Shown: positions 14,321 to 50,029, counted from the first letter of the stretch. The stretch is 63,434 nt of DNA from an uncultured Candidatus Saccharibacteria bacterium (GCA_964596325.1 CAZQSQ010000004.1:1-63434), one strand, 5' to 3'. Numbers and translations are program-made. Notes: generated by a model from the letters alone, not told the origin.

Positions 14321-14353
14321 ACAAAATTAATACCCGCGCATTGCGCGGTTTTT

Positions 14354-14400
14354 TAATAGATTTTCTTAGCGAATTTTGAGCTTTAGAAAATCATGTATGC
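14354..14400 (+). repeat. Stand-alone copy of the ATTAG...TGTATGC hairpin element
   Basis: taatag-attttc-ttagc-gaattttga-gcttt-a-gaaaat-c-atgtatgc, right after the ROK terminator. Confidence 0.75.
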
Positions 14401-14439
14401 ACCGCTTACGTGTGCGCGGATGCGCACTGCGGGGCGAAT

Positions 14440-14476
14440 AAATTCAATCAATGCGAGTTCTCGAGCATTAGAATTT
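14440..14476 (+). repeat. Related hairpin (6-bp stem, 5-bp stem, GA..GA loop, bulged A)
   Basis: aaattc-aatc-aatgc-gagttctcga-gcatt-a-gaattt. Confidence 0.55.
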
Positions 14477-14626
14477 ATTAAACCTCGCCAAAGTGTAATC
14501 ACGGCGGCGGGGTAATACTTTGATTGGAAAGGGGAGATATGATTGACAAATCAAAATCATTATTGTATCGTATATATGCTTAGCAAAAAGGAGCTAGGCA
14601 AATTCATTTGCCAAAAAGGAGGCAAA

Positions 14627-21929: not shown

Positions 21930-22757
21930 ATGGCAATGAAAATTGAGGCAACGGTTGGTCTCTTACCAAAGTTGGTGGAAAATGGAAGCGGGGAAGCTAC
22001 CCGCCAAGTGCTGGAAACAATTCTCCCGATTTACAACAAATTTATACAAAGGAAACTTCATTGGTCCGATCCTGATCACAACTTCGGTGGTACCCCAGAG
22101 GCACGCATAATCATTCCTGTACCAAGAAACAGCTCCAACCCCTATGCCTATGCCATTACCGATCCTATTGGCATCCATGTTGTGGCCACCTCTTTCATTG
22201 AGGGAAACAAAAGCCACAAAAATTTCTTACTGGTTATTCCGCCACATGAAATCAAACGTTTTAACGACATTTTCTCTGAGGTCAATTTCGCCCTCGGAGA
22301 CAATGATCTTCTCGTCTGGGATAAACTCAAAGCCAACCGCGCCGAGCTGGAAAGTCTGACGCCCGACTACGAAGGCAAGCAGACCAAAAGGATGCTGGCA
22401 GAATTTGTAAAGCATTGTCAAAGATTTGGCATTTTCTCCGCTGCAGAAGCCCAAGAAAGAGAAGGGGAGTTTATCATTGCCTGTTCTCGGACCAGGGCTA
22501 AGGCCAAGGAAAATCGCGCCCGTTTCAAGGCAGATCTCGAACGTAAACGCTGTAGCCCTACGTCTCGATTCTATGATTCAAAATACTCAGATGGGACTTT
22601 TCCTGCAGCCGAAAGCAATGTAATGCAGAATTACATTGACAAGCGCTTTACCATTTACATACCAGAAAAATCCTGGCGTGGAGAAATGACGCTTTTCAAT
22701 CTCGCGAATGTGAGCATTGAAACCAAACCCGAAATCACACAGCTCTCAATTGATTAA
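21930..22757 (+). CDS. Hypothetical protein
   Basis: 275-aa ORF with its own TTGACA promoter, structured leader and terminator (aaacccgcc/ggcgggttt). Confidence 0.75.
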   Translation: MAMKIEATVGLLPKLVENGSGEATRQVLETILPIYNKFIQRKLHWSDPDHNFGGTPEARIIIPVPRNSSNPYAYAITDPIGIHVVATSFIEGNKSHKNFLLVIPPHEIKRFNDIFSEVNFALGDNDLLVWDKLKANRAELESLTPDYEGKQTKRMLAEFVKHCQRFGIFSAAEAQEREGEFIIACSRTRAKAKENRARFKADLERKRCSPTSRFYDSKYSDGTFPAAESNVMQNYIDKRFTIYIPEKSWRGEMTLFNLANVSIETKPEITQLSID

Positions 22758-22789
22758 TCACAAACCCGCCAATCGGCGGGTTTTTTATG

Positions 22790-22861
22790 TGCTCCCAGCA
22801 GGAATCGAACCTGCACCTGCAGCTTCGGAGGCCACTGTTGTATCCATTCAACTATGGGAGC
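22790..22861 (-). tRNA. tRNA-Arg(CCG), CCA not encoded
   Basis: GCTCCCA/TGGGAGC acceptor stem; GTGGC-CTCCGAA-GCTGC anticodon arm; GCAGG-TTCGATT-CCTGC T-arm. Confidence 0.92.
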
Positions 22862-22889
22862 AATACTCAATATTTGATTGTTCGATTCC

Positions 22890-23020
22890 TTTCCCAGCAG
22901 GCGCCGCCAAGGCGGCATACAAGGAATACTAAAATTCGCTGCGCTCATTTTGTATTCCTAATAATCGAACCTGCACCTGCAGCTTGCCAGGCCTCGTTGT
23001 ATCCATTCAACTATGGGAGC
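22890..23020 (-). pseudogene. Interrupted copy of tRNA-Arg(CCG): 61-nt insert after the T-loop, anticodon changed to GGC
   Basis: The 5' half, D-arm, variable loop and T-arm match the intact tRNA; insert at 22902-22962; 3' acceptor strand reads TGGGAAA. Confidence 0.85.
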
Positions 23021-23131
23021 AAAAGCATGTAAACCATATTAGCAATTTATAGCCCGGTTTCAATGCTTATTTGACATAAAAATGCTTTTGCTTAATAATG
23101 TCTCACTTAACAATTTATATAAAGGAGGTTT

Positions 23132-23269
23132 ATGGCGGAGGATAAAACAGAAAGAACCTGTTACGTGAACGATGATTGCCAGAAATGCGAGCAAAATAAA
23201 TTTTGCTCTTGGGCCTTCCGGGAGGACTTGAACATAAAGAAACTTGGTCCTAAAAGGGATGATTCTTAG
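23132..23269 (+). CDS. 45-aa four-Cys microprotein (not in the ORF track)
   Basis: TTGACA promoter at 23071; SD AAAGGAGG; MAEDKTERTCYVNDDCQKCEQNKFCSWAFREDLNIKKLGPKRDDS*. Confidence 0.65.
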   Translation: MAEDKTERTCYVNDDCQKCEQNKFCSWAFREDLNIKKLGPKRDDS

Positions 23270-23281
23270 AAAGGAGGAAAA

Positions 23282-23674
23282 ATGCCCTATATAGCAAAAA
23301 GTGTCAGGGATAAGCTCGACCCTCATATCGAAGCTATTGCCCAAGCCATCAGCGATCAAACAAAGGAGAAAAAAGACGAACTAGCTCTGGCGGGCATGGT
23401 TAACTATGTCTGCACGCGCATTTCTCTTTTAAGCTTCCAAAAAGTGCTTGGTAAATTCCGTTACAAATGGATAGCCCTATTCACGGGAATTTTTGAAAAC
23501 ATCAAACAAGAATTCCACGATAGGGTAGTTAAGCCATACGAAGCGGAAGCCAATTGGAAACATGGAGACTTGCCCGAGTTTATCCAAGCGGCAAAAGATT
23601 TGAACGAGGAAATCGAATTTTCTAGAAATTCCAAAGCCAAAACACGCCCCCACACACCCCCAAAATCGCCCTAA
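23282..23674 (+). CDS. Phage-like small helical protein (MPYI... type, DUF6899-like)
   Basis: MPYIAKSVRDKLD..GMVNYVCTRI..KQEFHDRVVKPYE..HGDL; SD AAAGGAGG. Confidence 0.55.
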   Translation: MPYIAKSVRDKLDPHIEAIAQAISDQTKEKKDELALAGMVNYVCTRISLLSFQKVLGKFRYKWIALFTGIFENIKQEFHDRVVKPYEAEANWKHGDLPEFIQAAKDLNEEIEFSRNSKAKTRPHTPPKSP

Positions 23675-23798
23675 AAAAGGGCTTTTTTCTTTAGGCATCC
23701 CTCTTGATTTATATTAAGATTTCAGTATAATATAACCAGATATTTTATAGCAAAATACCCTGATCGGCACATAGAAAAGGTTACTTAAGGAGGCATGT

Positions 23799-26700
23799 AT
23801 GAACAAGAGCAAGATTGCCGTGATTATCACAGTGATTTTTTGTTTAGCCCAAATGCTACAAGTTGCTCCAGTGCGAGCGCTTACAGTTTGCCCCAGCGGC
23901 AACTGCAGCATTTTGATCGAAGAAGTGTTGCTAAAAGTGGATGGACAAATCATTTCCGATAATGATAAGTCCACGATGATGACTAATGTTCCTTTTGAGC
24001 GAATTTTTCTCCCCGGAACGCAGATGGAAATATCCGTAAAAGCCTCTGGTCCGATTAATGATGTCGCTTATTGGTCCCTCTATTGGGGCACTAATGACAC
24101 GCCATCATTAATAAACAGCGACCGGACAATCTGCGCAAAATGCCCAGGCGAAAAATATGCTCCCGAAGGTGCACCGGTTTTTAATGTTAAATGGGTTGTC
24201 CCAAAGGATGCTAAAAAGTATTCCAAAATTTGGATTCAATCCTTTGATCAAACCGGTAAAGCCATGGGCGGAGCTAATACTCGCCCGCTAGTGCACAGTC
24301 AAACAATCATCAAACCGAGCTGCTATGTTTCAGAAATAAAAGACGTAACAGAGAGCAGTGCTACGGCCATTATTCACTTTGCAAGGCCGGGAAGCGTTTG
24401 GCCCTTAAACTCTTGGCTGGAGCTAAGAAGTGATTTGGGACAGTATTCTCCCAACCACAGTCAACCACTGGGAATGAGAATATTCCAAAATGCTCAAGAG
24501 CTTACCGAAAACCAAAATGAGTTTGCCGTTGTTTTGAAAGATCTCCTCCCTAATTCCAAATATTGGGTAAAAGCCATTGGAGCTAGCGAGGGCGGATATT
24601 GCCAGAGCAGGGAAGTGGAGCTAATTACTCTCTGCGCCTTGCCGCAGCTTAAGACTTTGCGCTGTTCTAAAATTGATTGGAGCCAAAATAGTTGGAACCA
24701 AACCGACAATTCGGCCTACTTAACTTGCGAAATAACATCATTTGGCGGCGATAGCTACATGGAAATTATGGTGCAGGGATTTAATATCAATGCACCCCAG
24801 GAGCGCTTTGGCACAGCTTGGCAACGCCTTGAATGCAGCCAATTTGACCAACTGCCAAATGAATTTACATTGCAAGCCGGCAAAGGATTTACAGCCGAAG
24901 AAGTTTATGACTTCGAATTCTTAGCGCGCAACAGCCGTGGAGAAATTGCCAGTGGCGGGCACAAATACTTTCCGCCGCCCTTTCCCGGATATAAACCGGA
25001 GATCGTTACAGGGGGAGTTAAGAAAGTAACTCCAGACTCGGCCGAGCTGGTCATTAAAGTTGTCTCCATTTCTCATCCGACAAAAATTTGGCTAGAAATC
25101 ACTGACCAAAAATTCGGAGATATATGGAACGGGAATAAATTTACTCCTGATCCCGACGCCAAATCCATACTCAGCGATTCACTGGAAGTGGATTTGCCCG
25201 GAGAATACACCATTACGGTCAAAAATCTGGAGCCAAACAGAGGTATGGAAAAACCGCCCTCTTGGATCAGAAAAGAGTATCCGCATCTCAAATACACACC
25301 GGCCTATTTATTTAAGGCGCACGCCTTAGATTTAACCACAAAAGAAACTGACAAAGGCGCGGACTGGTCAAAATTGGAAACTTATCGTACTCTCCAAAAG
25401 CCCAAAGTCACCACCAAGCAACCTATAAACATCACTTACAAAAGTGCGGATTTGGGAGCAATGGTTGATTTCTCGGGTTTTAGCAGCGAATGCGTAATTT
25501 TCTTCAAGTATTGGCAAAAAGGCAAAATGGCTACGACCATTCAAGAAACATTCCCTCGCAACCAAGTCAAAACTCGCTATGATTACGCAGATTTTGAGCT
25601 CATGGAAGCCACACGCTTTACGGCTGAAAATCTCGAGCCATACACTGTTTACTGTTACCAAGCCTATGTAACCAATGGCCTGACCAATAGCAAGGGAGAA
25701 CTGACTGAAGTACCCGCGGCCAACATTCAAGAATTCCGGACATTGTGGGGAGATAAAAATTCTATCTACGATACTCCCTTGATCCAAACAACCGGAGTTT
25801 TCCAAACCGGGCCAAATACCTTTTGCCTGCAAGGCAAACTCTTGGACTTTGGCGGTTCGGATTGGGTCGAAGTCACGATTGAATATTGGGGTTTAGACAC
25901 GCATTTTGAAGGAGAGCAATCCTTCATTTACGTAGGCTTATACCGCAAAGAAAATTGGCAAGACAAATATCCGACATTCGATGTTTACCGCAGTAATCTG
26001 GTCTTTGGAAAATCGTTTGTTTTCCGCTTCACAGCTCGCTCCAGTGCGGGCACCACCAAAGGATTTTTGATAGATTCTTCTGGGCAAAAAGTTGAGGGAG
26101 GCTTTTGGAAATTCCAAACCGACCCACTCCCCGGAGAACAAGTCAAACCGGAGATATTGCTAAAAAACATCAAAATCCTGATGCCAGACCAAACTGAAGA
26201 AAACCCCATACCTCAAGCCATCATTACTATCGATGTCCGGAATATGGGCACACCACCGCTTCCTTGGCTGGATCTCCAATACCTTTGGACGCGATACAGT
26301 GGTTCGATAATCGCAGCTTGGCCTAATACTTGGCAATACAAATCGGAAAAAATCCGAATAACTAAAGCTGGCGAATATTCCTTCCTGATAAATAAAGGCT
26401 TGGAATTTGGCCGCGCTTTCTTTATAAGCGTGAATGCGGAAAATGGAAGTATGTTAACTTGGATGGTACCGGAAAGTAAATTTTTCCCGCACTATTTCAT
26501 CATTAACCACCTTCCACCGCTTATCAAAGCCGCCAACCCTACCTTTATCAATAAACAAAATACCCTGGCTAATACCCAAGTAATACACCCGGGAACCAAC
26601 GAATGGGGAACTTTCTTTAGCTGGTTTGAAGTTGTAACTTTCCGCGGATCTGTCAATGCAATAAACAAGGAAATTACAGTCCTCCCCGATACTCTGAACC

Positions 26701-26963
26701 TGGACGATCAAAAGCTCAGCCGCACACTCTTCATGACTCCCAAAATATCCAGAAAAGGCACTAAACCGTATTCCTTCAGTATTAATGCCGATCCGGGACT
26801 CCTAAATCTACCCGATGAACAATCCGGAAATAAAACCATTTCCACTTACTATGCTTACCGCGCTTGGGCTCAAAACCAAGGCGGACAATACCATACTAGC
26901 TGGATAGTGATTACCGATGATACGTTCCAAAGGATGGATGAGATGCCATGGGAAAAACCCTAA
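23799..26963 (+). CDS. Large secreted surface protein with multiple FN3/Ig-like repeats
   Basis: Signal peptide; repeated 'VT..SA', 'L.P.T.Y...A...N' segments (e.g. NLEPYTVYCYQAYVTN). Confidence 0.7.
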   Translation: MNKSKIAVIITVIFCLAQMLQVAPVRALTVCPSGNCSILIEEVLLKVDGQIISDNDKSTMMTNVPFERIFLPGTQMEISVKASGPINDVAYWSLYWGTNDTPSLINSDRTICAKCPGEKYAPEGAPVFNVKWVVPKDAKKYSKIWIQSFDQTGKAMGGANTRPLVHSQTIIKPSCYVSEIKDVTESSATAIIHFARPGSVWPLNSWLELRSDLGQYSPNHSQPLGMRIFQNAQELTENQNEFAVVLKDLLPNSKYWVKAIGASEGGYCQSREVELITLCALPQLKTLRCSKIDWSQNSWNQTDNSAYLTCEITSFGGDSYMEIMVQGFNINAPQERFGTAWQRLECSQFDQLPNEFTLQAGKGFTAEEVYDFEFLARNSRGEIASGGHKYFPPPFPGYKPEIVTGGVKKVTPDSAELVIKVVSISHPTKIWLEITDQKFGDIWNGNKFTPDPDAKSILSDSLEVDLPGEYTITVKNLEPNRGMEKPPSWIRKEYPHLKYTPAYLFKAHALDLTTKETDKGADWSKLETYRTLQKPKVTTKQPINITYKSADLGAMVDFSGFSSECVIFFKYWQKGKMATTIQETFPRNQVKTRYDYADFELMEATRFTAENLEPYTVYCYQAYVTNGLTNSKGELTEVPAANIQEFRTLWGDKNSIYDTPLIQTTGVFQTGPNTFCLQGKLLDFGGSDWVEVTIEYWGLDTHFEGEQSFIYVGLYRKENWQDKYPTFDVYRSNLVFGKSFVFRFTARSSAGTTKGFLIDSSGQKVEGGFWKFQTDPLPGEQVKPEILLKNIKILMPDQTEENPIPQAIITIDVRNMGTPPLPWLDLQYLWTRYSGSIIAAWPNTWQYKSEKIRITKAGEYSFLINKGLEFGRAFFISVNAENGSMLTWMVPESKFFPHYFIINHLPPLIKAANPTFINKQNTLANTQVIHPGTNEWGTFFSWFEVVTFRGSVNAINKEITVLPDTLNLDDQKLSRTLFMTPKISRKGTKPYSFSINADPGLLNLPDEQSGNKTISTYYAYRAWAQNQGGQYHTSWIVITDDTFQRMDEMPWEKP

Positions 26964-27035
26964 GGCAAATATGCGAAGACTTATGTCTTCGCTTTTTTAT
27001 TTGCAGGGCAGGGGACGCATGGTATAATATTTTTA

Positions 27036-27578
27036 ATGAAAAATAAATCTGCCTGTTTCTTTGCCGCGCTTTTAGCCACCTTCTTTTTATTTTCTATAGC
27101 CTATGGAGCTACGAGCACTCCCAAAGATTTGGATTTTGATTTGCCCAAACCCTCTGCCCAAACGCCGATAGCCTGCGAAGCTTGGAAGGGCGGACTGCTG
27201 GAGGGTGTCTGCAAAGATCCCAGCAAATTGGAATTTTGCCACCTCTTTGTTTTGTTGGACAATATCATCAACTGGATAATGTTTGTGGCCATGCCCATAG
27301 CGGCTTTTCTCCTTTTGGTTTGGGGAGGGTTTAATTATATTATTTATCTGGAAAACCCGGCTAATGCCAAAAAATTCTGGGATACAGCCAAAGCTCTTCT
27401 GTGGGGTGCTATCGTTGTTTATGCCGCCTATGCCGTGGTTAACCTCTTCCTGATTATTGTCGGCGCCAAAATTTTCTCTCCGGAAGCCGGATTGGGACAA
27501 TGGTTCAAATTCCCTTGCGGAACCGGCACGCCGCCGGCGAGCACTTCCACCCCGCCGACCGGAGTCAGCGAATTCTAA
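27036..27578 (+). CDS. VirB2/TrbC-like (T4SS-type) pilin
   Basis: Signal peptide, Cys motif, two TMs (IINWIMFVAMPIAAFLLLVWGGFNYI..AKALLWGAIVVYAAYAVV); leaderless promoter. Confidence 0.75.
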   Translation: MKNKSACFFAALLATFFLFSIAYGATSTPKDLDFDLPKPSAQTPIACEAWKGGLLEGVCKDPSKLEFCHLFVLLDNIINWIMFVAMPIAAFLLLVWGGFNYIIYLENPANAKKFWDTAKALLWGAIVVYAAYAVVNLFLIIVGAKIFSPEAGLGQWFKFPCGTGTPPASTSTPPTGVSEF

Positions 27579-27681
27579 ATTCTTCGACCAATAATACATC
27601 AGCCAAAGCTTTCGCTTTGGCTTTTTGTTTAATAACGCCTTGCCAAAATATCAAAAAAATGCTATTGTCTTTTTTGTTCTA

Positions 27682-27755
27682 GCCTCCGTAGTTCAACGGT
27701 AGAACAGAGGACTCTTAATCCTTTAACGAGGGTTCGATTCCTTCCGGAGGCACCA
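27682..27755 (+). tRNA. tRNA-Lys(CTT)
   Basis: GCCTCCG/CGGAGGC acceptor stem; GAGGA-CTCTTAA-TCCTT anticodon arm; GAGGG-TTCGATT-CCTTC T-arm; CCA. Confidence 0.95.
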
Positions 27756-27803
27756 AAGCAAAAACCCGCCCTTATGGCGGGTTTTTGCTTTGCCCCGGAA
27801 GGA

Positions 27804-28212
27804 AAGAGAACGAAGTTCGATTATTAGAAACTCAAGCCGAAGAATGAGGCTTAGAGTTTCTTGTATGCCGAGTAATCTCGGCGCCTTCCGAAAATCGTAA
27901 AAAACCCGAGCAGAGGGTTCGATTTATTAGATTTTCAAAACGAGCACAGCGAGTTTTAGAAAATCTTGTATGCTGCGAAGCGGCCCTTCCGGAGAAAAAG
28001 AAGAGAACGAAGTTCGATTATTAGAAACTCAAGCCGAAGAATGAGGCTTAGAGTTTCTTGTATGCCGAGTAATCTCGGCGCCTTCCGAAAATCGTAAAAA
28101 ACCCGAGCAGAGGGTTCGATTTATTAGATTTTCTTGGCGAGCAAGGCGAGCCTTAGAAAATCATGTACCTGCCTGCCGGTAGGCAGGTGCCGGGTAATCC
28201 CGGCCCTTTCGG
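27804..28212 (+). repeat. Array of four interrupted tRNA-Lys T-arm copies (A-B-A-B), each holding a hairpin element
   Basis: Exact 133-bp direct repeat 27804-27936 / 28001-28133 (period 197); inserts at 27823-27883, 27925-27984, 28020-28080, 28122-28204. Confidence 0.9.
28167..28188. repeat. Short palindrome nested in the fourth array unit
   Basis: acctgcctgccggtaggcaggt splits the conserved TGTA|TGC. Confidence 0.75.
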
Positions 28213-28390
28213 AAAAAAGGAAAAGGCGCCAAGCGGCCCTTGCGGAAGAAGGTTAGGGCTTTGAATTTAAGACTTAGGGCTTAGCAATCCCCCTTGCAAA
28301 AGATAGAAAAATCAGGTATAATTAAATACCTTCGAAACAGCTGGAATAGGGCCTGCTCGCCCTAGGAAAGCACAAGTTTTTATAGAAAAT

Positions 28391-28654
28391 ATGCTTAAAA
28401 CAGAAAAGAAGCAAAAAATCATTAAAGGCGTTCAGACACACGATACGGATACCGGCTCGCCCGAAGTCCAAATCGCTGTTCTTACCGAACAGATAGAAAA
28501 GCTTTTGCAGCACTTGGATTCACATAAAAAAGATTTCCACTCCAAGCGCGGTCTCCTGAAGATGGTTATGAAGCGCAAAAAACTTCTAAATTATCTTAAG
28601 AGCGAAAGCGTTGAACGGTTTGAAAAGATCTCCAAAAAGATCGGCCTTAAATAA
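28391..28654 (+). CDS. rpsO: 30S ribosomal protein S15
   Basis: [31 protein letters not shown]. Confidence 0.97.
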
Positions 28655-38085: not shown

Positions 38086-40584
38086 ATGCAAAATAAATTG
38101 CGTTCTTTTTTCCAAAATTTTGGCAACTTTTTTAATCGTCAAAATGCGCTTTTGGCATTTGGTTTAGTAGCCATTCTCATTTTGCCAACCCATTTCGCCC
38201 ATGCGGGCTTGCTGGATTGGATTTTGAAAGGCGTAATTGCCGCGGTTATGTGGGTTGTAGCCCAAATAGTTTTAGGCCTTTCTCAGGCCTTATTGGGAGT
38301 TTCGGCCTCCTTGATGATGACGATTGCCGACCCTTCATTTGTTTGTGTGCGCTGGGAAGGGAATCAGTGCATGAGTTCGCGCTACACCGAAATTTCCTTT
38401 GTGCGCGACGGCATTATCTTGTGCCGCGACTTAGCGGGAATATTTCTAGTTATGGCCCTTATCAGTATTGGCATCGGTGTGGCTCTTAAATTATTAGATG
38501 CCAAGCAATCACTGACCAAATTCGCCGTTTCGGCCATTTTGGTTTTTATTACCCCAATTATTACCGGCCCTATAATTGATTTTTCCAACGTCTTCATGTT
38601 TTCTTTCTTGAAAACCGGGGCCGCTTCGGGAGTCTTGGGGCAAATTCAGCTTGTTGATGCTTTTATGGATATTTTCGGCAAATCTTGGAGCCAAGATGCT
38701 TCTTTTGCCTCATTTTTCTTAACGGTAATTTCATCGCTTTTGGCGCTTTTGGCTTTTGCGCTCTTTGCCGCCTACACAATGTTTCGAATTGCCATTTTAC
38801 TTTTGAGCCGCTATGTCGCCTTATGGCTTTTAATTATGCTGGCGCCTTTGGCCTTTGCCATGCAAGCCTTGGGGCAACTGCGAGGGCAACCCTATTTCAA
38901 ATTTTTTGAACAAATGGGTCAGTATTATGAAAGATGGTGGCGAGAATTTATCGCTTGGTGTTTTACCGGTATTAATGTTGCCTTGTTCATTTATATCGCC
39001 GGCCGGGTTTCCTTGGCTTTGGCAGGGAACGAATCAAAACTATTCAGGAGTTCACCAATTGGCGGGGAGGTTTTTTACATCATTAATATTTCGGCGGATT
39101 TCGGCAATATCATTTCCATAATCATGCCCATCCTTATCCCACTCATCATTTTGCATATGGGTTATAAACTTTCTTTGGAGTGGGGAGCTTCGGGCGCCAC
39201 TGCTGTCATCGGGGCAGCTGACGGAATGGTAAATCTTGGCAAGACCGCTTTATTGGGCGCAGGTGCTGCCGCAGGCGGCGCCGTGATGGGCAAAGCCTTG
39301 GCGAGCGGAGCAGGACAAAAAGCTTTAACTGGAATACAAGGCATGACAACGGCTACGGCCAAAGATTCTAAATTCGGCAAGTGGCTCAAAAATACCAGCC
39401 TCTCGCAATCAATTAATGCCGCGGCTTCTCGCGGCCTCGAGAAGAGCGACAAAGTCATCGGCCAAAGGCAAAAAGCCGCCGACGAAAAAATTACTCGGGC
39501 CAAAAAACTCGACGAACGCATGGAGGCTCAGGGCAGGGAAGGAAAATATATGGAAAACTTGGCAACAGTGGCGCCTATGTTTGAGCCCAATTATCAGGAA
39601 AGAGCTAAACTGATTGAATTGGCCAAGAAAGGAAAAATTCCCGGACTTAAAGACGAAGAAAAACAAAAAATCCTGGCCAATAAAAGCATCGATACCAAGA
39701 CCAGAAAGGCTATGGTGGAAGCCGACCAGTTCATTCTTAATGATAAAGTCTTGGGCGAAGAATTTCTTAATGTTTATAACACCAAGGATATTAAGGATGC
39801 CGGCAGCATTGCCATGAATGAAGCCATAAACAAAGCCGGTGTCGATTTGACTGGCGGGCAAGGCGAAAAGCGCAAGAGCCTGCTTAAAGAAATTTTCAAA
39901 TCCGCCAACTTTGGCCGCAGTTACGATTCCGAGATGACCGCTCTGGGCCTTACCGATGCCCAGCAGCAAGATATCAGGGAAGCGCGCCAGAAATTCTATG
40001 ACAAAGTCAAGGAACAGGCGGTTAAAGATGCCATCGGCTCACTCAATAAAGAAAAATTGGATAATCTTAGCCATGAGGATTTGATGAAGCCGGATTTGAT
40101 TGAAAAAATTGCCAAGTATAGCAAAGACAAAGATGTTATTATGGGCGCGGCTAAGAGAGGCGGCAGTGAGTGGTTCGAGCAATACGTGCAAGCTATTCCT
40201 CCTGACAAGATTAATAAGACCATTGGAATGTTTTCGGCTGATGATTTCAAATCAATGGGAACAAGCACCTTGTCGGCTCCCGCTACTTTGCAACCCATGA
40301 TGGCCAATATCTCTAAACCTGATGCTTTTGGCTCTTACATGTCCCAATTACCCGATGATCCGCAGATAAATCAACAGATACAGCAAATCATTAATGACCC
40401 TGTTTGGCAAACCAACGCCTTGAAAAATAATAATACCGCGGGCTTTAATTGGGCCGCAACGCTTGGCGCCAGAAACAGGCAAATCAAGCTTAATGATATT
40501 CACGGAAATCCGATTGACTTTACTTCCGATACAAAAGCCGCCAAGCAGAAGATTCAAGAATTAATTAATGCTCGCGTCCCGTAA
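38086..40584 (+). CDS. VirB6/TrbL-like polytopic membrane protein with a long charged tail
   Basis: Multiple TMs (RYVALWLLIMLAPLAF..YYERWWREFIAWCF), Gly/Ala linker, charged C-terminal half; precedes the PrgI/VirB4 genes. Confidence 0.7.
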   Translation: MQNKLRSFFQNFGNFFNRQNALLAFGLVAILILPTHFAHAGLLDWILKGVIAAVMWVVAQIVLGLSQALLGVSASLMMTIADPSFVCVRWEGNQCMSSRYTEISFVRDGIILCRDLAGIFLVMALISIGIGVALKLLDAKQSLTKFAVSAILVFITPIITGPIIDFSNVFMFSFLKTGAASGVLGQIQLVDAFMDIFGKSWSQDASFASFFLTVISSLLALLAFALFAAYTMFRIAILLLSRYVALWLLIMLAPLAFAMQALGQLRGQPYFKFFEQMGQYYERWWREFIAWCFTGINVALFIYIAGRVSLALAGNESKLFRSSPIGGEVFYIINISADFGNIISIIMPILIPLIILHMGYKLSLEWGASGATAVIGAADGMVNLGKTALLGAGAAAGGAVMGKALASGAGQKALTGIQGMTTATAKDSKFGKWLKNTSLSQSINAAASRGLEKSDKVIGQRQKAADEKITRAKKLDERMEAQGREGKYMENLATVAPMFEPNYQERAKLIELAKKGKIPGLKDEEKQKILANKSIDTKTRKAMVEADQFILNDKVLGEEFLNVYNTKDIKDAGSIAMNEAINKAGVDLTGGQGEKRKSLLKEIFKSANFGRSYDSEMTALGLTDAQQQDIREARQKFYDKVKEQAVKDAIGSLNKEKLDNLSHEDLMKPDLIEKIAKYSKDKDVIMGAAKRGGSEWFEQYVQAIPPDKINKTIGMFSADDFKSMGTSTLSAPATLQPMMANISKPDAFGSYMSQLPDDPQINQQIQQIINDPVWQTNALKNNNTAGFNWAATLGARNRQIKLNDIHGNPIDFTSDTKAAKQKIQELINARVP

Positions 40585-40588
40585 TATT

Positions 40589-41029
40589 ATGGTTAACTCT
40601 TCCGATGTTGATTTTGAAAAAATGTATAAAGCTCTGCCGCCAGACTTAAAGGAAATTTTGAATTCCTCGGAAGTCAACGATACTATAATTTCCGTTTGCG
40701 AAGGATACGGTTTTGCGGAAAAATTTGCCGAAGTTCAAAAAAATGTCGGACTGGTTTTAGCCGGAGCGCTCTCTGTGGAAGATTTCAAAAATTACATTCA
40801 GATGCTTTCCGAGCAGGGTGGGGTGGCGGCCTATAACAAAATTTATGTTGTCGCCTTTGCCCCGGTGGAGCGCTACCAAATTTTAGAGAACGGTCAAACA
40901 TTTTTTGGCAGCATGCCCGCTCCCTTACCCAAAGATACCCCCAATGAACCGCTTAAAACATCTTGGGCACCCCCGAGGCCTTCCCAAGAAGCGGGCGGAG
41001 CGGACCCTTATCGGGAAAAACCAGAATAA
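40589..41029 (+). CDS. Hypothetical protein in the T4SS-like cluster
   Basis: Helical domain (YKALPPDLKEIL..VGLVLAGAL) plus a Pro tail ending DPYREKPE. Confidence 0.7.
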   Translation: MVNSSDVDFEKMYKALPPDLKEILNSSEVNDTIISVCEGYGFAEKFAEVQKNVGLVLAGALSVEDFKNYIQMLSEQGGVAAYNKIYVVAFAPVERYQILENGQTFFGSMPAPLPKDTPNEPLKTSWAPPRPSQEAGGADPYREKPE

Positions 41030-41032
41030 TTT

Positions 41033-41428
41033 ATGGATTATCCTGTACCACAAATACAACACGAAACTAAAATTGGCGGCCTAACCTTTTCACAGCTTAT
41101 TTTTGTCGGGGGAGGGGTGGCTTTAGCTTCTATATTGTATTTTATTATTCCCCAATATTCCCACATTGTTTTTCCGATTATCGCCCTAGTAACTTTAGGT
41201 TTGGCTTTTGGCAGCGTGCACGGTATGAGCATTCCGACTTTTGTAGGCAAAACCATTTCTTATTTTTTTATCGGGCACACCTATATATGGAAGAGTAAGC
41301 GCTATGAGATATTTTCCCAGCAAAACAAATTGCCCACAGAAAAAAAAGATACCGCCATGCCCGAATTGCCCAAATCGTCTATTACTAGAAGGCAAAGCAA
41401 AATTTCGGACTTAAATAAAATGATATGA
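41033..41428 (+). CDS. PrgI/VirB3-like protein
   Basis: YPVPQ..ETKIGGLTFSQLIF, two TMs, YIWK. Confidence 0.85.
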   Translation: MDYPVPQIQHETKIGGLTFSQLIFVGGGVALASILYFIIPQYSHIVFPIIALVTLGLAFGSVHGMSIPTFVGKTISYFFIGHTYIWKSKRYEIFSQQNKLPTEKKDTAMPELPKSSITRRQSKISDLNKMI

Positions 41429-42072
41429 TTGAAAGGCCTAAAAAAAATAATACTTTAGCCGCCCAAGACTTTTTAGGGATTTTAGATATCCGCGAGAGCA
41501 CAATAATCCTAAAAGATAAAAGTCTCCGCGGGCTGCTTTATGTCACTTCCCAAAATTTCGGGCTTAAATCCAGCGAAGAACAGGACGCCATTATTTTCCA
41601 ATTTCAACAATTTCTCAATTCTTTGGATTTTCCCTGCCAAATAGTCGTGCAGTCGCGCAAGCTGAACATGCAGCGCTATTTTGATGACCTGAGGGCCTTG
41701 GAGGGGCAGCAACAAAATCCTTTGTTAAAAATCCAAATGCAGGAATACCTGAAATTTATTGAAGGCTTGGTCAAATCCGGAACGATTATGACGAAAAACT
41801 TTTTCGTCGCCGTGCCCTTTTATCTGACAGAAATATCAGGGATTTCGGTAAGCAAAAAACTTGTTAATGATTTGACTGAAGAAAATTTCCAAAGAGCTAA
41901 AAACCAGCTTTGGCAACGTTTAGAATTTGTCGCCTTGGGCCTAAAACGCTCCGGCCTGCAAGCCGCCGCCTTAAGCACTGAGGAGATAATTGATTTGCTT
42001 TGGTCACTCTATCACACTCGCGAAGCCGAACAAGGGTATTACCCAGAGCTTCCGCCAGAATTAATCAAATAA
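41425..42072 (+). CDS. VirB4/TraE N-terminal-like accessory protein
   Basis: FGLKSSEEQDAIIFQFQQFLNSLDFPCQIVVQSRKL..KNFFVAVPF. Confidence 0.8.
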   Translation: MIERPKKNNTLAAQDFLGILDIRESTIILKDKSLRGLLYVTSQNFGLKSSEEQDAIIFQFQQFLNSLDFPCQIVVQSRKLNMQRYFDDLRALEGQQQNPLLKIQMQEYLKFIEGLVKSGTIMTKNFFVAVPFYLTEISGISVSKKLVNDLTEENFQRAKNQLWQRLEFVALGLKRSGLQAAALSTEEIIDLLWSLYHTREAEQGYYPELPPELIK

Positions 42073-42076
42073 CATT

Positions 42077-43876
42077 ATGGGATTGCTCGACTTCTTAAAA
42101 AAATCCAACCAGGATTCACCCCCCGTGCCACCGGGATTCGATAATTTCCAAACCGTAACCCCGATGGACATCATCGTCCCCAACGAAATCGATGTTAAAC
42201 CGACTATGTTAAGCCTGGGCGGGAGGCTTTCGCGAACTTACTTTATTTTTTCCTACCCCCGATATCTTAATGTCGGCTGGCTTTCCCAGGTGATAAATAT
42301 GGATACGGCCTTGGACATTTCCCTCTATATCCATCCCATGGATACGGCCAATACACTTAAAGAATTACGCCGCAAAGTTACGGATATTGAAGCGGAAATG
42401 ATGGATCGCGACCAAAAAGGACTTATTCGCGACCCTGGCCTGGAAACCGCTTACAAGGATTTGGAAGCCTTGCGCACTAACCTCCAAACAGGGCAGGAGA
42501 GAATATTCAATCTGGGTCTTTATATAACGGCTTATGCCGACCAAGAAGCCGAACTCAATGAAATTGAGCTGCAGTTGCGCCAAGCCTTAGAGGCCCGCCT
42601 CAGTTACATCAAGCCGGCTTATTACGAACAAAAAGAGGGCTTCATTTCTACTTCTCCATATTGCTGGGATTTGCTGGTTAAACACAGCCCCATGAACACC
42701 CAAACTTTAGCCACGAGTTTTCCCTTTATCTCCTTTGATTTAAGTTCCAACGAGGGTATCTTATACGGCATCAATAAACACAATAATTCCTTGGTGCTTT
42801 TTGACCGCTTCGGCCTGCAAAATGCCAACGAGGTTATTTTTGCCACAGCTGGTTCAGGAAAATCATATTTTGCCAAATTAGAAATTCTACGCCACTTGAT
42901 GTTTGGTGTCGATATTATCGTTATTGATCCGGAAAACGAATATAAATTCCTCTCTGAAGCGGTTGGCGGATCATTCTTTAATATCTCCTTATCGTCACAG
43001 GATCACGTTAATCCATTCGATATCTCTTGGAGCAACCCCGACGAAAACCCCGAGGATGTTTTACGCAGCAGTATTATCAGCTTGGTCGGGCTTTTTCGGA
43101 TTATGTTGGGAGGCTTGACTCCTGAAGAAGATTCTATTATCGACCAAGCCATAACCGAAACTTACGCCGCCAAAGATATCACCACTAAAAGCGATCCGAC
43201 TCTCTGGGCGGAAAATGTGCCCACGATGAGCGATTTCGAATCAGTTCTGGAGAATATGCAGGGAGCCGAGCACCTTTTGGCCAAAATCAGAAAATATACC
43301 CAAGGAACTTTCGCCCAATTCTTTAACCAAAAAACCAATATTACCCTTGATAATAATCTGGTGGTTTTTGGTATCCGTGATATGGAAGATTCGTTGCGCC
43401 CCATCGCCATCTATATGGTGATGAAATACGTTTGGAATATGGTACGCAGCTCGCTTAAAAAAAGAATTTTGGTTATTGATGAGGCTTGGTGGCTAATGCA
43501 AAACGAAGATTCGGCCTCTTTCTTATTTGGCATCGTCAAGCGCGCGCGCAAATATTGGCTAGGGGTTTCCACTATCACCCAAGACGTTGAAGACTTTATG
43601 AAATCGGAATATGGCAAGCCGGTAGTTACTAATTCTTCAATTGTTTTTTTGATGAAGCAATCCAGCGCCACTATTGAAACTGTTCAACAAACTTTTAACC
43701 TGACAGATGGAGAAAAAATGCTCCTCTTGGAATCTCCGGTAGGAGAGGGGATATTCTTTGCAGGGCAAAAACACGTTGTTATGAGAGCAATGGCCTCTTA
43801 TGCTGAGAACCAATTCATCACCACTAGTCCCGATGAGGTTAAAAAAATCATTGCGGCCAAAAAATTTGGGGGATGA
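42077..43876 (+). CDS. virB4: VirB4/TraC-like ATPase
   Basis: YGIN..SLVLFDRF; Walker A ATAGSGKS; VIDPENEY; Walker B ILVIDEAW; GEGIFF. Confidence 0.9.
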   Translation: MGLLDFLKKSNQDSPPVPPGFDNFQTVTPMDIIVPNEIDVKPTMLSLGGRLSRTYFIFSYPRYLNVGWLSQVINMDTALDISLYIHPMDTANTLKELRRKVTDIEAEMMDRDQKGLIRDPGLETAYKDLEALRTNLQTGQERIFNLGLYITAYADQEAELNEIELQLRQALEARLSYIKPAYYEQKEGFISTSPYCWDLLVKHSPMNTQTLATSFPFISFDLSSNEGILYGINKHNNSLVLFDRFGLQNANEVIFATAGSGKSYFAKLEILRHLMFGVDIIVIDPENEYKFLSEAVGGSFFNISLSSQDHVNPFDISWSNPDENPEDVLRSSIISLVGLFRIMLGGLTPEEDSIIDQAITETYAAKDITTKSDPTLWAENVPTMSDFESVLENMQGAEHLLAKIRKYTQGTFAQFFNQKTNITLDNNLVVFGIRDMEDSLRPIAIYMVMKYVWNMVRSSLKKRILVIDEAWWLMQNEDSASFLFGIVKRARKYWLGVSTITQDVEDFMKSEYGKPVVTNSSIVFLMKQSSATIETVQQTFNLTDGEKMLLLESPVGEGIFFAGQKHVVMRAMASYAENQFITTSPDEVKKIIAAKKFGG

Positions 43877-45807
43877 AAAATCCAATAATCAAAAAACTGT
43901 TTTGGCTTTCTTGGCTAGCCGCTTTGGCGGTTATTCTTTTTCCTTGTGCGACCTTTGCCCAAGTTAAAGCAGTACCCACACCAGTCACACCGAGCAATGA
44001 AGGTATAGTTACCCCGGTTAAACCGAACAATGACTTTCGAAATTGGTGCCAAGTAAATTATCCGAATTTTAACTGCAATAGCGTTCCGGATTTGGGCCAA
44101 TATATCGCTTATTTGTATCGCTTGGCCGTTTATGCCGCCGCCATAATTGTAATTTTTATAATCGTCCGGGAAGGCTTTGCTTATTTTTTAGCCTCGGGCA
44201 ATCCCGGCAAGTCCAATGAAGCCAAAGGGAAAATTTATTCGGCTTTTTTGGGTTTGATTATCCTTTTGGCCGGTTCGTTGATCTTAAGCACCATCAGCCC
44301 GAACCTAAACTCCCTGGACTTAAATTTGAAGCCCTTGGTTTACAGTTTTAAGGCCCTACAGGGCAAAGAGCGCACTGTTACCACCCGCTATCTAGCTATC
44401 CCACTGGGGGAAATAATCACTGAAGCTTCTTTTAGTGAAAATTTCATGAAATCCATTGTCGGGACGGCTGACCAGGCAGAGAAGCTGAAAAAAAATAATA
44501 AAGAAATCCAAGCGCTGGTTGAAGAATTTTATAGCACGATGCAGGTCTGCACCTGCGGACAGTCACGCTGTTTGGATAATGTTTCTCCTTGCAGTAATGC
44601 CATTTGCACTACCGGGTCTTGCGACAAAGAAAAGCTCGCTGCGCTAAAAAGCCAAATCACGGAAAAAATTTCCACTCAAAGAGAAAATATCGCCACCGTC
44701 CGCTCGGAAATGAGAAAACAAGGCAAGGGATTTGAAACACCTAAAAGCTCGCTGCGCCAATTAAGCGCGGTTAATACCTTGCTTAATTTGACCGACGGGA
44801 TAAATGTTATCGGTTATTATGATTTTTTATCTTTGCGTGAAGATGCGGGCAAAAATATAATCATTGAATACGACACCAATCCTTTCCCGGAGTGGAAGCC
44901 GCTTTTCGACAGAAAAACTTTTGATCCGACTGTTTTTTATATCAATAAAGAAGAAGCTGAACTCGCAATCATTCAAGCCCAACATTCTATGAAAAATATG
45001 AATGTTGACCCCATTACTGATGCAGAACGCTACAGCCATGGAGCCGCTAGCGGCACAAAAGACCCCAACTTCGACCCGGGAGATGATAGCGATCAGCCTT
45101 TGCCTGAACCGCCTAGCGATACTAATAAATTACCCAGAAACTATCCTATGTGGTACCAGGGCGATGGAGCTTGGGGGAATTGCCTGCGCGGCATAGGCGG
45201 CTCGGCGCCTTTATGGAAAAGTGGCTGCGCCGACACTTCTTTGTCTATGGCTATCGGTTATTGGTATAAATACAACGCTATCACCCGCCGCAGTTGGCTC
45301 TCTTACATCCGCAAGAACCCTCCGTCTTCTAATATGGATACGGCTGGGGGGTCTTGCTTACGCCCAGAAGGTGACGCTCCAGACCCTTATCGGGTGCTTT
45401 ATTATATGAATTACTACGGGGGCAACCTCTCTGATGGAACTTGGGATGAAGAGGCTTTGGGAAATTGGCTGGAGAAAATCAATCTGACTTTACAGCCGCT
45501 CTATAGAAAGTCTTTTGATGCAATCGCGCACCAGTCTAATGATTTGGGTAAAAGCGTTTTATTGTTTTGCGATCATTTTGGTTTAGGGCGTTCATATCGC
45601 GCCAGTAAAACCCGCTGCTCTTGGGAAGGGGATTTTGCCTGCAACCACTACGTTTTAGTGACAAAAGTCGAGGGAGATAAAATGTACATCAATGACCCGG
45701 GTTTTGGGGAACCTTACCTCACAAGGGGAGAATTCTCTTATTTTTCTTGCGGCGAGGTAGTAAATGAAGATATGTCTTTTGCAGTTTATCCAATAAAATG
45801 GAAATAA
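43873..45807 (+). CDS. T4SS pilin fused to a Cys-rich helical domain and a C39-like peptidase
   Basis: YIAYLYRLAV..GFAYFLASGNPGKSNEAKGKIYSAFLGL; WYQGDGAW..SGCADTS..NHYVLV..YINDPG. Confidence 0.78.
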   Translation: MKNPIIKKLFWLSWLAALAVILFPCATFAQVKAVPTPVTPSNEGIVTPVKPNNDFRNWCQVNYPNFNCNSVPDLGQYIAYLYRLAVYAAAIIVIFIIVREGFAYFLASGNPGKSNEAKGKIYSAFLGLIILLAGSLILSTISPNLNSLDLNLKPLVYSFKALQGKERTVTTRYLAIPLGEIITEASFSENFMKSIVGTADQAEKLKKNNKEIQALVEEFYSTMQVCTCGQSRCLDNVSPCSNAICTTGSCDKEKLAALKSQITEKISTQRENIATVRSEMRKQGKGFETPKSSLRQLSAVNTLLNLTDGINVIGYYDFLSLREDAGKNIIIEYDTNPFPEWKPLFDRKTFDPTVFYINKEEAELAIIQAQHSMKNMNVDPITDAERYSHGAASGTKDPNFDPGDDSDQPLPEPPSDTNKLPRNYPMWYQGDGAWGNCLRGIGGSAPLWKSGCADTSLSMAIGYWYKYNAITRRSWLSYIRKNPPSSNMDTAGGSCLRPEGDAPDPYRVLYYMNYYGGNLSDGTWDEEALGNWLEKINLTLQPLYRKSFDAIAHQSNDLGKSVLLFCDHFGLGRSYRASKTRCSWEGDFACNHYVLVTKVEGDKMYINDPGFGEPYLTRGEFSYFSCGEVVNEDMSFAVYPIKWK

Positions 45808-46691: not shown

Positions 46692-46695
46692 TCTT

Positions 46696-49740: not shown

Positions 49741-49745
49741 AACTC

Positions 49746-49880: not shown

Positions 49881-49959
49881 ATTTTTTACTAAACACATAG
49901 TAACAAAATTTGACTCTTTAGTCAAACTATTTTTATATTGCCAACATTCTATTAACAAC

Positions 49960-49991: not shown

Positions 49992-50029
49992 ATGTTCTGA
50001 TATTTGATTTTGTTGACATTATTTAAGGC

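Follow-up and report, generated by a model that had tools for sequence, protein, structure and literature searches.

We found that a short non-coding repeat in a 63,434-nt stretch of DNA (the window) behaves as a mobile or recombining element rather than as a tRNA intron. Five inserts each lie between base 60 of the T-loop and base 61 of the T-stem; a tRNA-Arg-like copy holds one of them, and T-arm fragments of tRNA-Lys hold the other four. A covariance model finds two further copies in the window at 14354-14533, a sixth that is canonical and a seventh that is degenerate. The explanation that we tentatively prefer, and that could well be correct, is a lineage-restricted, non-autonomous hairpin element that spreads by DNA-level copying into T-arm-like sites. 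The features concerned, in window coordinates, are:

14354..14436, plus strand: sixth, canonical element copy, B subfamily
14437..14533, plus strand: degenerate seventh unit, abutting the sixth copy
22789..22861, minus strand: intact tRNA-Arg(CCG), called by ARAGORN and Rfam, downstream of the interrupted copy
22890..23020, minus strand: interrupted tRNA-Arg-like pseudogene
22902..22962, minus strand: element copy 'Arg', 61 nt, between T60 and C61 of the tRNA-Arg-like copy
27682..27755, plus strand: intact tRNA-Lys(CTT), called by ARAGORN and Rfam
27804..28215, plus strand: four-unit array A-B-A-B'
27823..27883, plus strand: first Lys-A element copy, stems AAACTC/GAGTTT and AAGCC/GGCTT
27925..27984, plus strand: Lys-B element copy, stems ATTTTC/GAAAAT and AAAAC/GTTTT
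28020..28080, plus strand: second Lys-A element copy, identical to the first
28122..28204, plus strand: Lys-B' element copy, with the base motif variant CATGTA
28222..28248, plus strand: degenerate remnant of a unit 3' end, a hairpin-2-like sequence followed by CCTTGCGGAAG

All five T-loop inserts reported by an earlier, sequence-only reading of this DNA were recovered at their positions. Each is flanked by TTCGATT on the 5' side and by the 3' T-stem strand (CCTGC or CCTTC) on the other, and the T-loop and 3' stem are unbroken on either side, with no target duplication. Insertion at 60/61 is orientation-specific and exact in two different tRNA backgrounds, and the association with this position is real and far beyond chance. 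The motif ATTAG-N25-50-TGTATGC was observed four times against 0.2 expected, and none of 100 shuffles reached four; the fifth copy (28122-28204) carries the variant CATGTACC. The elements are 60-85 nt long and non-coding, and the units contain no ORF. The ends define two subtypes, one base apart on either side: the Arg copy and both Lys-A copies read ATTAG...GGCG, the Lys-B copies T-ATTAG...GGC.

Every copy folds into a long hairpin and a GC hairpin, with z-scores of -3.5 to -5.9. Hairpin 1 is AT-rich, with ~13 paired positions, a fixed foot (TAWTAG...CWTGTA) that pairs over only 2-3 bp, a small internal loop of about 1-3 nt per arm, an invariant bulged A among its invariant unpaired bases, and a variable terminal loop of the form GA-N5-7-GA. 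Hairpin 2 is GC-rich, has 5-6 bp and is unrelated in sequence to hairpin 1. RNAalifold, to which no fold was supplied, recovered the two-hairpin fold, with compensatory changes in 14 of 24 pairs. Across 13 distinct sequences 90.5% of the cells are paired, with both-side changes in 11 of 16 pairs; none of 500 shuffles attained the score observed, and slid controls were 28-53% paired. The common layout and covarying stems proposed earlier therefore hold, as does the description of a discrete structured non-coding repeat family. GC-GNA-GC loops are present as claimed but are not conserved between copies, whose loops differ (GCGCAGC, GCACAGC, GCAAGGC, AGAAT, ATTTT, ATGAAGT). A match to an Rfam family was to count against the earlier reading. 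At gathering score Rfam 15 returned four tRNAs only and no match to the element, and at E up to 5 nothing overlapped the core of any element over 22700-28400.

The strong covariation of both hairpins, the invariance of the unpaired bases and a U-G pair conserved at the foot of hairpin 1 speak for a structured non-coding RNA module, such as one that binds a protein or serves as a scaffold. Insertion after base 60 would spare the T-loop fold, so that a stable tRNA-like carrier would make this position a favoured one. We consider such a module unlikely. The 141 variable stem cells include 130 Watson-Crick pairs, 4 C-A pairs and no G-T (G-U in RNA), which is not the pattern of an RNA helix evolving via wobble intermediates, and an Rfam match is absent even at E = 5.

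On the opposite strand the four C-A pairs, against zero G-T, would be G-T wobbles. This favours a second alternative, which we likewise hold to be unlikely: that the element is the folded recombination site, integron attC-like or hairpin attP-like, of tiny cassettes integrating at tRNA genes. The unit would consist of the tRNA 3' strand, a linker, the T-arm 5' half and the element, and would recombine with a tRNA gene within CCTTCCGG(AG). Extruded hairpins would unite the two T-arm halves and so mimic the target, and new units would enter beside the tRNA, older ones being pushed outward. The 'decoy att module' suggested by the sequence-only reading is also a live rival. Integron attC sites are 57-141 bp long and have an R box with a conserved RYYYAAC / GTTRRRY core and AAC triplet (PMC5027507). 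The element is of similar size, keeps structure over sequence, and has an extrahelical base placed asymmetrically, an internal loop close to the foot and a terminal loop that varies, the bulge and the terminal loop being attC feature classes (PMC5027507); its arrays share one orientation and vary between strains in content, mostly at one end. It differs in its foot, which reads TAWTAG / CWTGTA on the top strand and TACAWG / CTAWTA on the bottom strand, with no AAC/GTT core on either, and whose 2-3 bp are too short for an attC-type recombinase binding box. An attC hairpin has extrahelical bases, an unpaired central spacer of 5-6 nt per arm and a variable terminal structure; the bulged A, small internal loop and terminal loop of the element differ from this pattern in number and spacing. 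Furthermore, the 'cassettes' are gene-free, are anchored at a tRNA T-arm rather than at attI, and have no integrase nearby.

At the Lys locus a 17-bp terminator hairpin (27754-27792) stands behind the intact tRNA, a module that varies among strains of identical S15 protein; the array comes next. Each unit is a 27-nt 3' fragment of tRNA-Lys (about positions 44-70) with the element at 60/61. Since a 197-nt tandem duplication lies inside the array, the four copies do not represent four independent events. Hairpin 2 occupies 27867-27882 in the first Lys-A copy and reads GCTGC GAA GCGGC in Lys-B, which scores 75.8 bits. In Lys-B' a nested palindrome (28167-28188) separates hairpin 1 from hairpin 2 (28189-28204); the same hairpin 1 is found in the sister genome L008 without the palindrome and with the Lys-A hairpin 2. 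The remnant beyond the array forms an 89% direct repeat with 27975-27993. The tRNA pieces that carry elements are non-functional. T-arm stems around some copies are unpaired, yet both hairpins are still 90% paired, so selection acts on the element rather than on the tRNA that hosts it; failure to maintain the T-stem also speaks against the RNA module. Every T-arm fragment seen carries an element. This favours the cassette site, and it would also fit T-arm halves and element together forming one recombination unit.

The Arg copy consists, in order, of ATTAG, hairpin 1, CTTGTA-T, hairpin 2 (GCCGCC TT GGCGGC) and G, and scores 71.9 bits with model R1 (fold z = -3.6). Its orthologue in L008 has a compensatory G-C to A-T change and another hairpin 2. 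The 5' part of the host (positions 1-60, 22963-23020) and the 3' part (CCTGCTGGGAAA, 22890-22901) are direct repeats of the intact gene with 90% and 100% identity, respectively, and the interrupted and intact copies show concerted evolution. The anticodon loop of the pseudogene is CTGGCAA, its last two acceptor pairs are broken, and as it stands it is called neither by ARAGORN nor by Rfam. Together with a tRNA host the element is predicted to form a three-way junction of T-stem, hairpin 1 and hairpin 2.

The exact, identical position in two tRNA backgrounds is what a tiny tRNA intron, removed from the transcript to give working tRNAs, would also display, and with the insert removed the Arg-like copy of the window is called 'tRNA-Ala(GGC)' by ARAGORN. 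Nevertheless, an intron is very improbable, and this reading is largely refuted. The L008 version minus its insert is not recognized as a tRNA, the GGC anticodon does not match the identity elements of its host, and the acceptor stem is defective. The Lys hosts are fragments and not genes, and intact copies of both tRNAs adjoin the inserts. At 60-85 nt the element is far smaller than group I or II introns, whose ribozyme cores (P1-P9 or domains I-VI) exceed 200 nt, and the Rfam search gave no such match. Mobile non-canonical tRNA introns are known from Archaea (PMC4090602, PMC4033280), and disruption of tRNAs by mobile elements has been described (PMC3293823). Those cases resemble the present one in that similar short inserts occupy one identical position outside the anticodon of different tRNAs, populations are heterogeneous at tRNA loci, and tRNA fragments lie nearby. 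The element differs from the archaeal introns in its bacterial host, in the absence of a bulge-helix-bulge (3-4-3) from its predicted fold, in residing in fragments or pseudogenes with intact genes alongside, and in occupying one locus without any tRNA. With hosts that are fragmentary or defective and no bulge-helix-bulge motif in the fold, the intron-like option of the earlier reading is not borne out.

A promoter-like site (23063-23036) lies upstream of the Arg pair and a terminator-like site (22762-22783) after it, so the interrupted and intact copies probably form one transcription unit, as judged from these flanking sites. Since the Arg element copy sits between the promoter-like site and tRNA-Arg, it is probably transcribed with the tRNA. 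This copy has been kept in two strains with a core divergence of about 12%, compared with a far more diverged spacer. Its placement and retention are in favour of the RNA module. So is the fact that every copy runs sense to local transcription, which leaves room for an RNA-level role or an RNA intermediate. On the other hand, strong terminators precede the copies at two of the three loci, where no promoter belongs to the copies themselves, and a search for per-unit promoters found none.

The third locus, 14354-14533, has no tRNA sequence around it. The sixth copy, which the sequence-only reading did not list, starts in the T-run of the terminator of a ROK gene (hairpin 14334-14348), and its 5' boundary, T-AWTAG directly after GCGCGG-TTTTT, is as in the T-loop insertions. 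Its hairpin 2 holds a nested hairpin (14412-14427), and it scores 51.6 bits with model R1 and 62.6 bits with R2. In the variable part it is 68-76% identical to the Lys-B family, compared with 38-53% for the Arg, L023 and Lys-A cores; by sequence similarity, related cores therefore occur at unlinked loci, the 14354 copy sharing a subfamily with the Lys-B copies. The seventh unit has a hairpin (14437-14479) of the form AATAAATTC / AATGC-GA..GA-GCATT / bulged A / GAATTTATT, followed by a GC-rich tail, and is nearest to Lys-A. It scores 14.7 bits in the window, where it is less well preserved than in other strains, whose versions reach 27-39 bits. Because these two copies lack a tRNA, T-loops are a preferred context and not the sole one; the left flank in the window is GATT in five copies and TTTT in one. 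Exclusive targeting of T-loops, as first proposed, fails with one locus in three not being a T-loop. The claim that intact tRNAs are always next door is true of the Arg and Lys inserts, but the sixth and seventh copies adjoin no tRNA. The units at this locus also lack T-arm halves and CCTTCCGG, which counts against the cassette site.

The element was found in a few related Parcubacteria only, and comparison among them supported differences in presence and copy number between near-identical strains. Strains with identical S15 protein have 0 to 4 whole units in the Lys array, and the spacer between the pilin gene and rpsO measures 315, 576, 585, 616, 717 or 813 nt depending on the strain. The 180-nt block at 14354-14533 is missing from a sister genome; in L050 and L051 the same terminator is followed by a 14-nt filler of unrelated bases. 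Such turnover is a further point against the RNA module. A relative with a 90% identical S15 has a single unit whose stems are wholly different yet perfectly paired. The copies are also mosaic, with hairpin 1, hairpin 2 and flanks combined differently among them: one hairpin 1 occurs with varied flanks and varied hairpin 2 sequences, and one flank type hosts unrelated cores.

At the Lys locus the strain differences are mostly tRNA-proximal, affecting the terminator module and the first unit, as the cassette site would have it. The last unit of L017 ends with CCTTCCGGAGG-AAGG, which is the tRNA 3' end at the empty site of L012, and tRNA-Lys of L017 itself has another 3' end and terminator than that of L012. 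This is the classic attL/attR arrangement and, like a tRNA-Lys 5'-side replacement scar in L025, favours the cassette site. Some tyrosine integrases are known to use the T-loop as their crossover segment. The likeness to attL/attR scars extends to the order of an intact tRNA followed by displaced 3' fragments, the outermost of which carries the empty-site 3' end. However, every duplicated tRNA fragment here is interrupted by a conserved structured insert, and the Lys 'island' is only 260-500 nt of non-coding DNA with no integrase or cargo. A displaced tRNA 3' part with its original downstream flank was seen at the Lys locus (L012, L017 and the window). The Arg locus does not show this: its intact gene has the interrupted copy on the upstream side, the reverse of what a 3'-half crossover predicts.

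It is also conceivable, although distinctly improbable, that the inserts are passive scars, fragments of foreign DNA left by homology-anchored illegitimate recombination at conserved tRNA genes. A hairpin would by chance have become linked to a T-loop once and then spread by gene conversion. The loci are indeed recombination hot spots, with tRNA modules inverted between relatives and terminator alleles that do not follow S15 similarity, and the concerted evolution of the tRNA-Arg copies fits the same picture. Uptake-related genes, for a ComM-like protein and pilins, are also present and count on this side. Passive scarring does not account for two hairpins kept despite complete turnover of stem sequence, or for an identical boundary at a site without tRNA homology.

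Under the preferred explanation, copying would take place at the DNA level, always in the same orientation, and would leave no target duplication; the enzyme would presumably be encoded elsewhere in the genome. The preferred target would be a GC-rich stem strand with a T-rich run behind it that ends in TT, the T-arm of tRNA genes (GGTTCGATT|CC) being the favoured site and a terminator T-run a secondary one. Since a working tRNA would be damaged by an insertion, copies would survive only in spare tRNA pieces, such as the duplicated tRNA-Arg and the 3' tRNA-Lys fragments left by recombination at tRNA genes. Resident units would be gained and lost by unequal recombination and modules swapped by gene conversion, giving rise to strain-variable arrays. 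With three known loci only, the target rule would rest on very few events. The 14354 site counts against targeted insertion in that it is not clean, a sister genome having 14 unrelated bases there. The great difference in stem sequence between copies of one genome is unusual for recently amplified miniature transposons.

Like REP/BIME sequences, REPINs and miniature transposons, the element is short, non-coding and intergenic, and often lies just behind terminators; as with REP/BIME it is clustered and strain-variable. GTAG is the 5' foot of classical REPs, and TAG is found in the element. A REP is an imperfect palindrome with fixed 5'-foot bases, and the element correspondingly has (T)AWTAG before a bulged palindrome. 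It differs from REPs in forming direct arrays rather than inverted pairs (seven copies in 63 kb), in having two unlike hairpins per unit, with stems unrelated between copies of one genome, in its exact tie to T-loop position 60/61, and in that no RAYT-type gene was seen in the window. As in IS200/IS605 elements of the PATE type, the target is not duplicated, the orientation towards a short target is fixed, either end has a hairpin, and the length is near the minimum for such ends. Those elements have a similar subterminal pair of hairpins and one fixed short target, whereas the hairpins here are unrelated to each other and the left flank varies. Orientation is not tied to replication either: the GC-skew minimum is at dnaA, near 50 kb, and both strands of a single replichore carry copies. 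An HUH/Y1 or REP-type mechanism, which the sequence-only reading had in view, would be a weak candidate, given the two unlike hairpins, this strand distribution and GNA mini-hairpin loops that are not conserved. In the comparisons made, the element did not qualify as an integron attC site, an IS200/IS605 derivative, an archaeal-type tRNA intron or a group I intron, and its fit to REPs was mixed.

The sequence-only reading was right that the window holds no cognate enzyme. Neither the 63-kb window nor the related contigs seen encode a recombinase, transposase, HUH nuclease or reverse transcriptase. An integrase domain was found neither in the window ORFs nor in the contig gene tables, which weighs against the cassette site, and no Y1 transposase domain, RAYT-type gene or TnpA gene was found in the window. 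A 275-aa strain-variable gene beside the Arg module was considered as the cognate enzyme and rejected; Pfam and NCBIfam contain nothing that matches it, a search of 1.84 billion representatives brought up no homologue beyond its own cluster, and its structure model (pLDDT 31) is unusable. An undescribed site-specific recombination system of Parcubacteria is a rather unlikely possibility. It would use a structure-recognized two-hairpin DNA site, oriented insertion at the T-arm loop-stem junction and integron-like arrays of gene-free micro-cassettes beside tRNA genes, with an enzyme of unexpected type encoded elsewhere.

Public collections were scanned with a strict, T-loop-independent pattern, and viral contigs also with looser patterns. 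Matches numbered 3 in species-representative genomes, 4 in JGI metagenome contigs, and 0 and then 10 in viral contigs; in all of them the stems were unpaired and the model score was ≤22 bits. These collections, which failed to yield even the JGI and NCBI contigs of the window itself, evidently do not contain this lineage, so the counts have no bearing on rarity. A BLAST search of the array against phage and plasmid records gave no match, and a literature search for a T-loop-targeting bacterial element or a Parcubacteria repeat found nothing relevant. Nor does the element fit the consensus sequences of self-cleaving ribozymes, the K-turn, group II domain V/VI or box C/D, none of which was hit in Rfam. 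An S15 operator mimic, suggested by the array upstream of rpsO, was rejected on two grounds: rpsO has no connection with the other loci, and its promoter begins only downstream of the array.

Parcubacteria have tiny genomes and few recognized mobile elements. Repeated landing at one nucleotide position of the tRNA T-arm would constitute a new targeting rule, and the element may point to an unrecognized hairpin-dependent recombinase or nuclease; if it acts as RNA instead, it would be a new tRNA-scaffolded motif. The carrier arrays turn over between otherwise near-identical strains and could serve as a fine-scale strain marker. The tRNA loci here gain and lose flanking modules (promoters, terminators and fragments), which matters for the annotation of tRNA pseudogenes in metagenome-assembled genomes. 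All seven copies in the 63 kb are intergenic, and within arrays they are in direct orientation.

Four tRNA genes were identified in the window with both ARAGORN and Rfam:

10849, tRNA-Pro(CGG)
21408, tRNA-Arg(TCG)
22789-22861, minus strand, tRNA-Arg(CCG)
27682-27755, tRNA-Lys(CTT)

tRNA-Arg(CCG) is preceded on its own strand by a second, tRNA-Arg-like copy, which shares direct repeats of 90% and 100% identity with the intact gene and is interrupted by 61 nt (22902-22962) between T60 and C61. The Lys array (27804-28215), located 3' of tRNA-Lys and its 17-bp terminator and including a 197-nt tandem duplication, has four units, each a tRNA-Lys 3' fragment (approximately positions 44-70) with a 60-83-nt insert at the same position as in the Arg-like copy. 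Re-reading of the sequence confirmed the coordinates and layout that a sequence-only reading had assigned to these five inserts. GGTTCGATT is found without an insert in all three working tRNAs that carry it, and also within two coding genes. The suggestion in the sequence-only reading that the inserts are intron-like did not hold. The hosts are fragments or a pseudogene with intact genes adjoining, the host in the sister genome L008 is not tRNA-like once the insert is removed, and the predicted fold contains no bulge-helix-bulge motif; a tRNA intron was rejected.

With a covariance model built on the 49-nt element core, six copies in the window scored at least 51 bits, and with filters off no other match exceeded 15 bits. 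Two units go beyond those of the sequence-only reading. The sixth copy (14354-14436) begins within the T-run of a ROK-gene terminator and is directly abutted by a degenerate seventh unit (14437-14479), which retains the inner architecture with a different foot and is less decayed in other strains (27-39 bits). Since no tRNA sequence surrounds these two units (14354-14479), the proposed targeting of T-loops stands as a preference, seen at two of three loci, but not as an obligation. The element has no Rfam match.

The element motif occurs 4 times versus 0.2 expected. Every copy folds into one long and one GC hairpin (z-scores, -3.5 to -5.9), and RNAalifold independently arrived at the same structure, with compensatory changes in 14 of 24 pairs. 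In 13 distinct sequences drawn from several strains, pairing covers 90.5% of cells and both sides have changed in 11 of 16 pairs; none of 500 shuffles equalled the observed score, and sliding the partner strand as a control left only 28-53% pairing. Hairpin 1 has fixed bases at its foot (TAWTAG and CWTGTA), a 5-7-nt loop flanked by GA...GA and a bulged A on the 3' side between its two stems. Its foot is followed by one U and then by hairpin 2 (GYCGNN / NNCGRC, loop often TAAT), a type of hairpin not found in the window outside element copies. Two copies contain perfect GC-rich palindromes of about 16-22 nt (28167-28188 and 14412-14427), one between hairpins 1 and 2 and the other within hairpin 2. 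These are missing in otherwise matching copies of other strains, which suggests that small hairpins were inserted secondarily or expanded. Purine-rich tails, GGAA(A/G)GG...GAGAAC, lie after or between units at all three loci (22886-22901, 27795-27816 and 14520-14533) and may be either a component of the unit or mere low-complexity sequence; at the Lys locus, CCGGAAGG of the tail is, in addition, complementary to the 3' strand of the tRNA, CCTTCCGG.

All copies are sense to local transcription, and the Arg copy has a promoter-like site on one side and tRNA-Arg on the other. Both facts were counted in favour of a structured-RNA role, which we consider unlikely. Counted for the DNA level were the highly labile copy number, the location of the remaining copies, which at both other loci follow strong terminators and lack their own promoters, and the composition of the variable stems, with 130 Watson-Crick cells, 4 C-A, 7 T-T and 0 G-T. 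This pattern, unlike the usual RNA-helix signature, weakly hints, given the small numbers, that the folding strand is the complementary one. Copies occur on both strands of a single replichore, with the GC-skew minimum at dnaA near 50 kb.

Large public pattern scans gave only chance matches and did not return contigs that protein look-ups subsequently recovered; they carry no information on distribution. Informative relatives were found by look-ups with neighbouring proteins. Strains with identical S15 differ in the spacer that separates the pilin gene from rpsO, which measures 315, 576, 585, 616, 717 or 813 nt. In the strain with the 315-nt spacer (L012) the array is absent and tRNA-Lys ends in ...CCTTCCGGAGG-AAGG. 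In another strain (L017) this sequence forms the end of the last unit, and the tRNA itself has a different 3' end and terminator, a layout such as integration would leave. Distal units are common to strains; terminator modules and first units vary. A relative with 90% identical S15 carries the tRNA-Lys module inverted and with one unit, whose entirely new stems (AACCGC/GCGGTT and ACAAT/ATTGT) pair perfectly, and syntenic loci examined in relatives at 75-81% S15 identity held no element copies. In the array-free strain (L012:2559-2874) the tRNA-Lys(CTT) 3' end is CGGAGG-A, giving a G1-A72 mismatch, versus CGGAGGC in array strains; either the tRNA is repaired by a 3' end from the array, or deletion between the 11-nt repeats produced the empty form.

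In the main rival explanation, the element serves micro-cassettes anchored at tRNA genes as a folded site of recombination, and crossover takes place in CCTTCCGG. This would account for the att-like ends and for the occupation of every T-arm fragment; however, it fails for the units at 14354-14533 and for the copy order at the Arg locus, and we give it a low probability.

Cores and flanks were found in different combinations. In the window, one hairpin 1 (ATTTTC-TTGGC...) is accompanied by its own hairpin 2 and lies in a B-type flank; in L008 it is combined with the Lys-A hairpin 2 and an A-type flank. Three unrelated cores occur in the A-type flank, and the hairpin 2 of the Arg element differs between two strains. 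Related cores lie at unlinked loci, since by variable-part identity the 14354 copy groups with the Lys-B family and the abutting unit is nearest to Lys-A. T-stem pairing is lost around several copies (in part for the A-type flank, wholly for L008_2) while the element helices are retained. The element is thus distinct, as a unit, from the tRNA sequence around it.

The sister genome L008/L050 (Candidatus Paceibacterota, 957-kb contig) departs from the window at all three loci. It retains the interrupted Arg-like copy, with the entire promoter-to-terminator module inverted relative to its neighbours; in its orthologous Arg element one G-C pair has become A-T by compensatory change, and hairpin 2 differs. 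The Arg pseudo-copy and the intact gene have strain-specific substitutions in common, which indicates that the two evolve in concert. The 14354-14533 block is missing, and 14 unrelated bases follow the same terminator. Among close relatives, entire tRNA modules, each comprising promoter, tRNA, terminator and attached elements, lie inverted versus flanking genes at the Arg and Lys loci (window 22760-23075 versus L008:4600-4935; window 27600-28250 versus L023:5038-5425 and L027:9764-10001), with no flanking inverted repeats evident. The terminator hairpins of tRNA-Lys and tRNA-Arg (27754-27792 and 22757-22788) differ from those of L008, L011, L017 and L023 by many compensatory changes, and because the distribution of terminator alleles departs from S15 similarity, recombination between lineages at these loci is suggested. 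In the relative with 90% identical S15 (L025:342-832; compare L023:5038-5425), a second copy of the first 18 nt of tRNA-Lys (GCCTCCGTAGTTCAACGG) precedes the gene; the approximately 85 nt separating the two copies hold an inverted repeat and a promoter-like sequence. This duplication mirrors, on the 5' side, the replacement scars of the 3' side.

We tentatively favour a non-autonomous hairpin element that is restricted to one lineage and copied as DNA. It would insert in one fixed orientation, without target duplication, at T-arm-like targets (a GC-rich strand with GG at its end, followed by a T-rich run that closes with TT) and would persist only at dispensable ones; unequal recombination and gene conversion would then enlarge, shrink and reshuffle the arrays. 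The tRNA fragments are best explained as products of recombination at tRNA genes, which in L025 left the 5'-side scar as well. That the element is itself a passive scar is improbable. All of these mechanisms are proposals. Rfam and literature searches found no description of such an element. The nearest known are REP-type palindromic repeats, attC sites, integrase scars at tRNA genes and archaeal mobile non-canonical tRNA introns (PMC4090602, PMC3293823), but it lacks at least one defining feature of each. It belongs among small structured intergenic repeat elements, set apart by its unusual, precise association with the tRNA T-arm, and its known distribution is narrow.

With attC sites the element shares a common logic of conserved structure, variable sequence and asymmetric bulge, but the defining core is absent (PMC5027507). 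IS200/IS605-like ends were rejected since the two hairpins are dissimilar. In agreement with the sequence-only reading, which saw no cognate enzyme, neither the window nor the neighbouring contigs examined encode a recombinase, transposase, HUH nuclease or reverse transcriptase. A 275-aa ORF beside the tRNA-Arg module (21930-22757, plus strand) was rejected as an enzyme candidate: it is an orphan with no Pfam/NCBIfam match, no homologues among 1.84 billion representatives other than members of its own cluster, and an unusable AlphaFold model (pLDDT 31). It is present in the window's species and absent in the sister genome. The 180-aa gene upstream of tRNA-Lys (27036-27578) is a pilin-like gene in relatives, and a cluster at 40568-48183 encodes a PrgI-like protein, a TraG/VirB4-like ATPase and several type IV secretion pilin-domain proteins. 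In the region 49400-51421, dnaA (50030-51421) is preceded by yidC, a jag-like gene and a small ORF and followed by dnaN. This is likely the replication origin because the cumulative GC-skew minimum falls there; to its left, the majority of genes are directed towards it.
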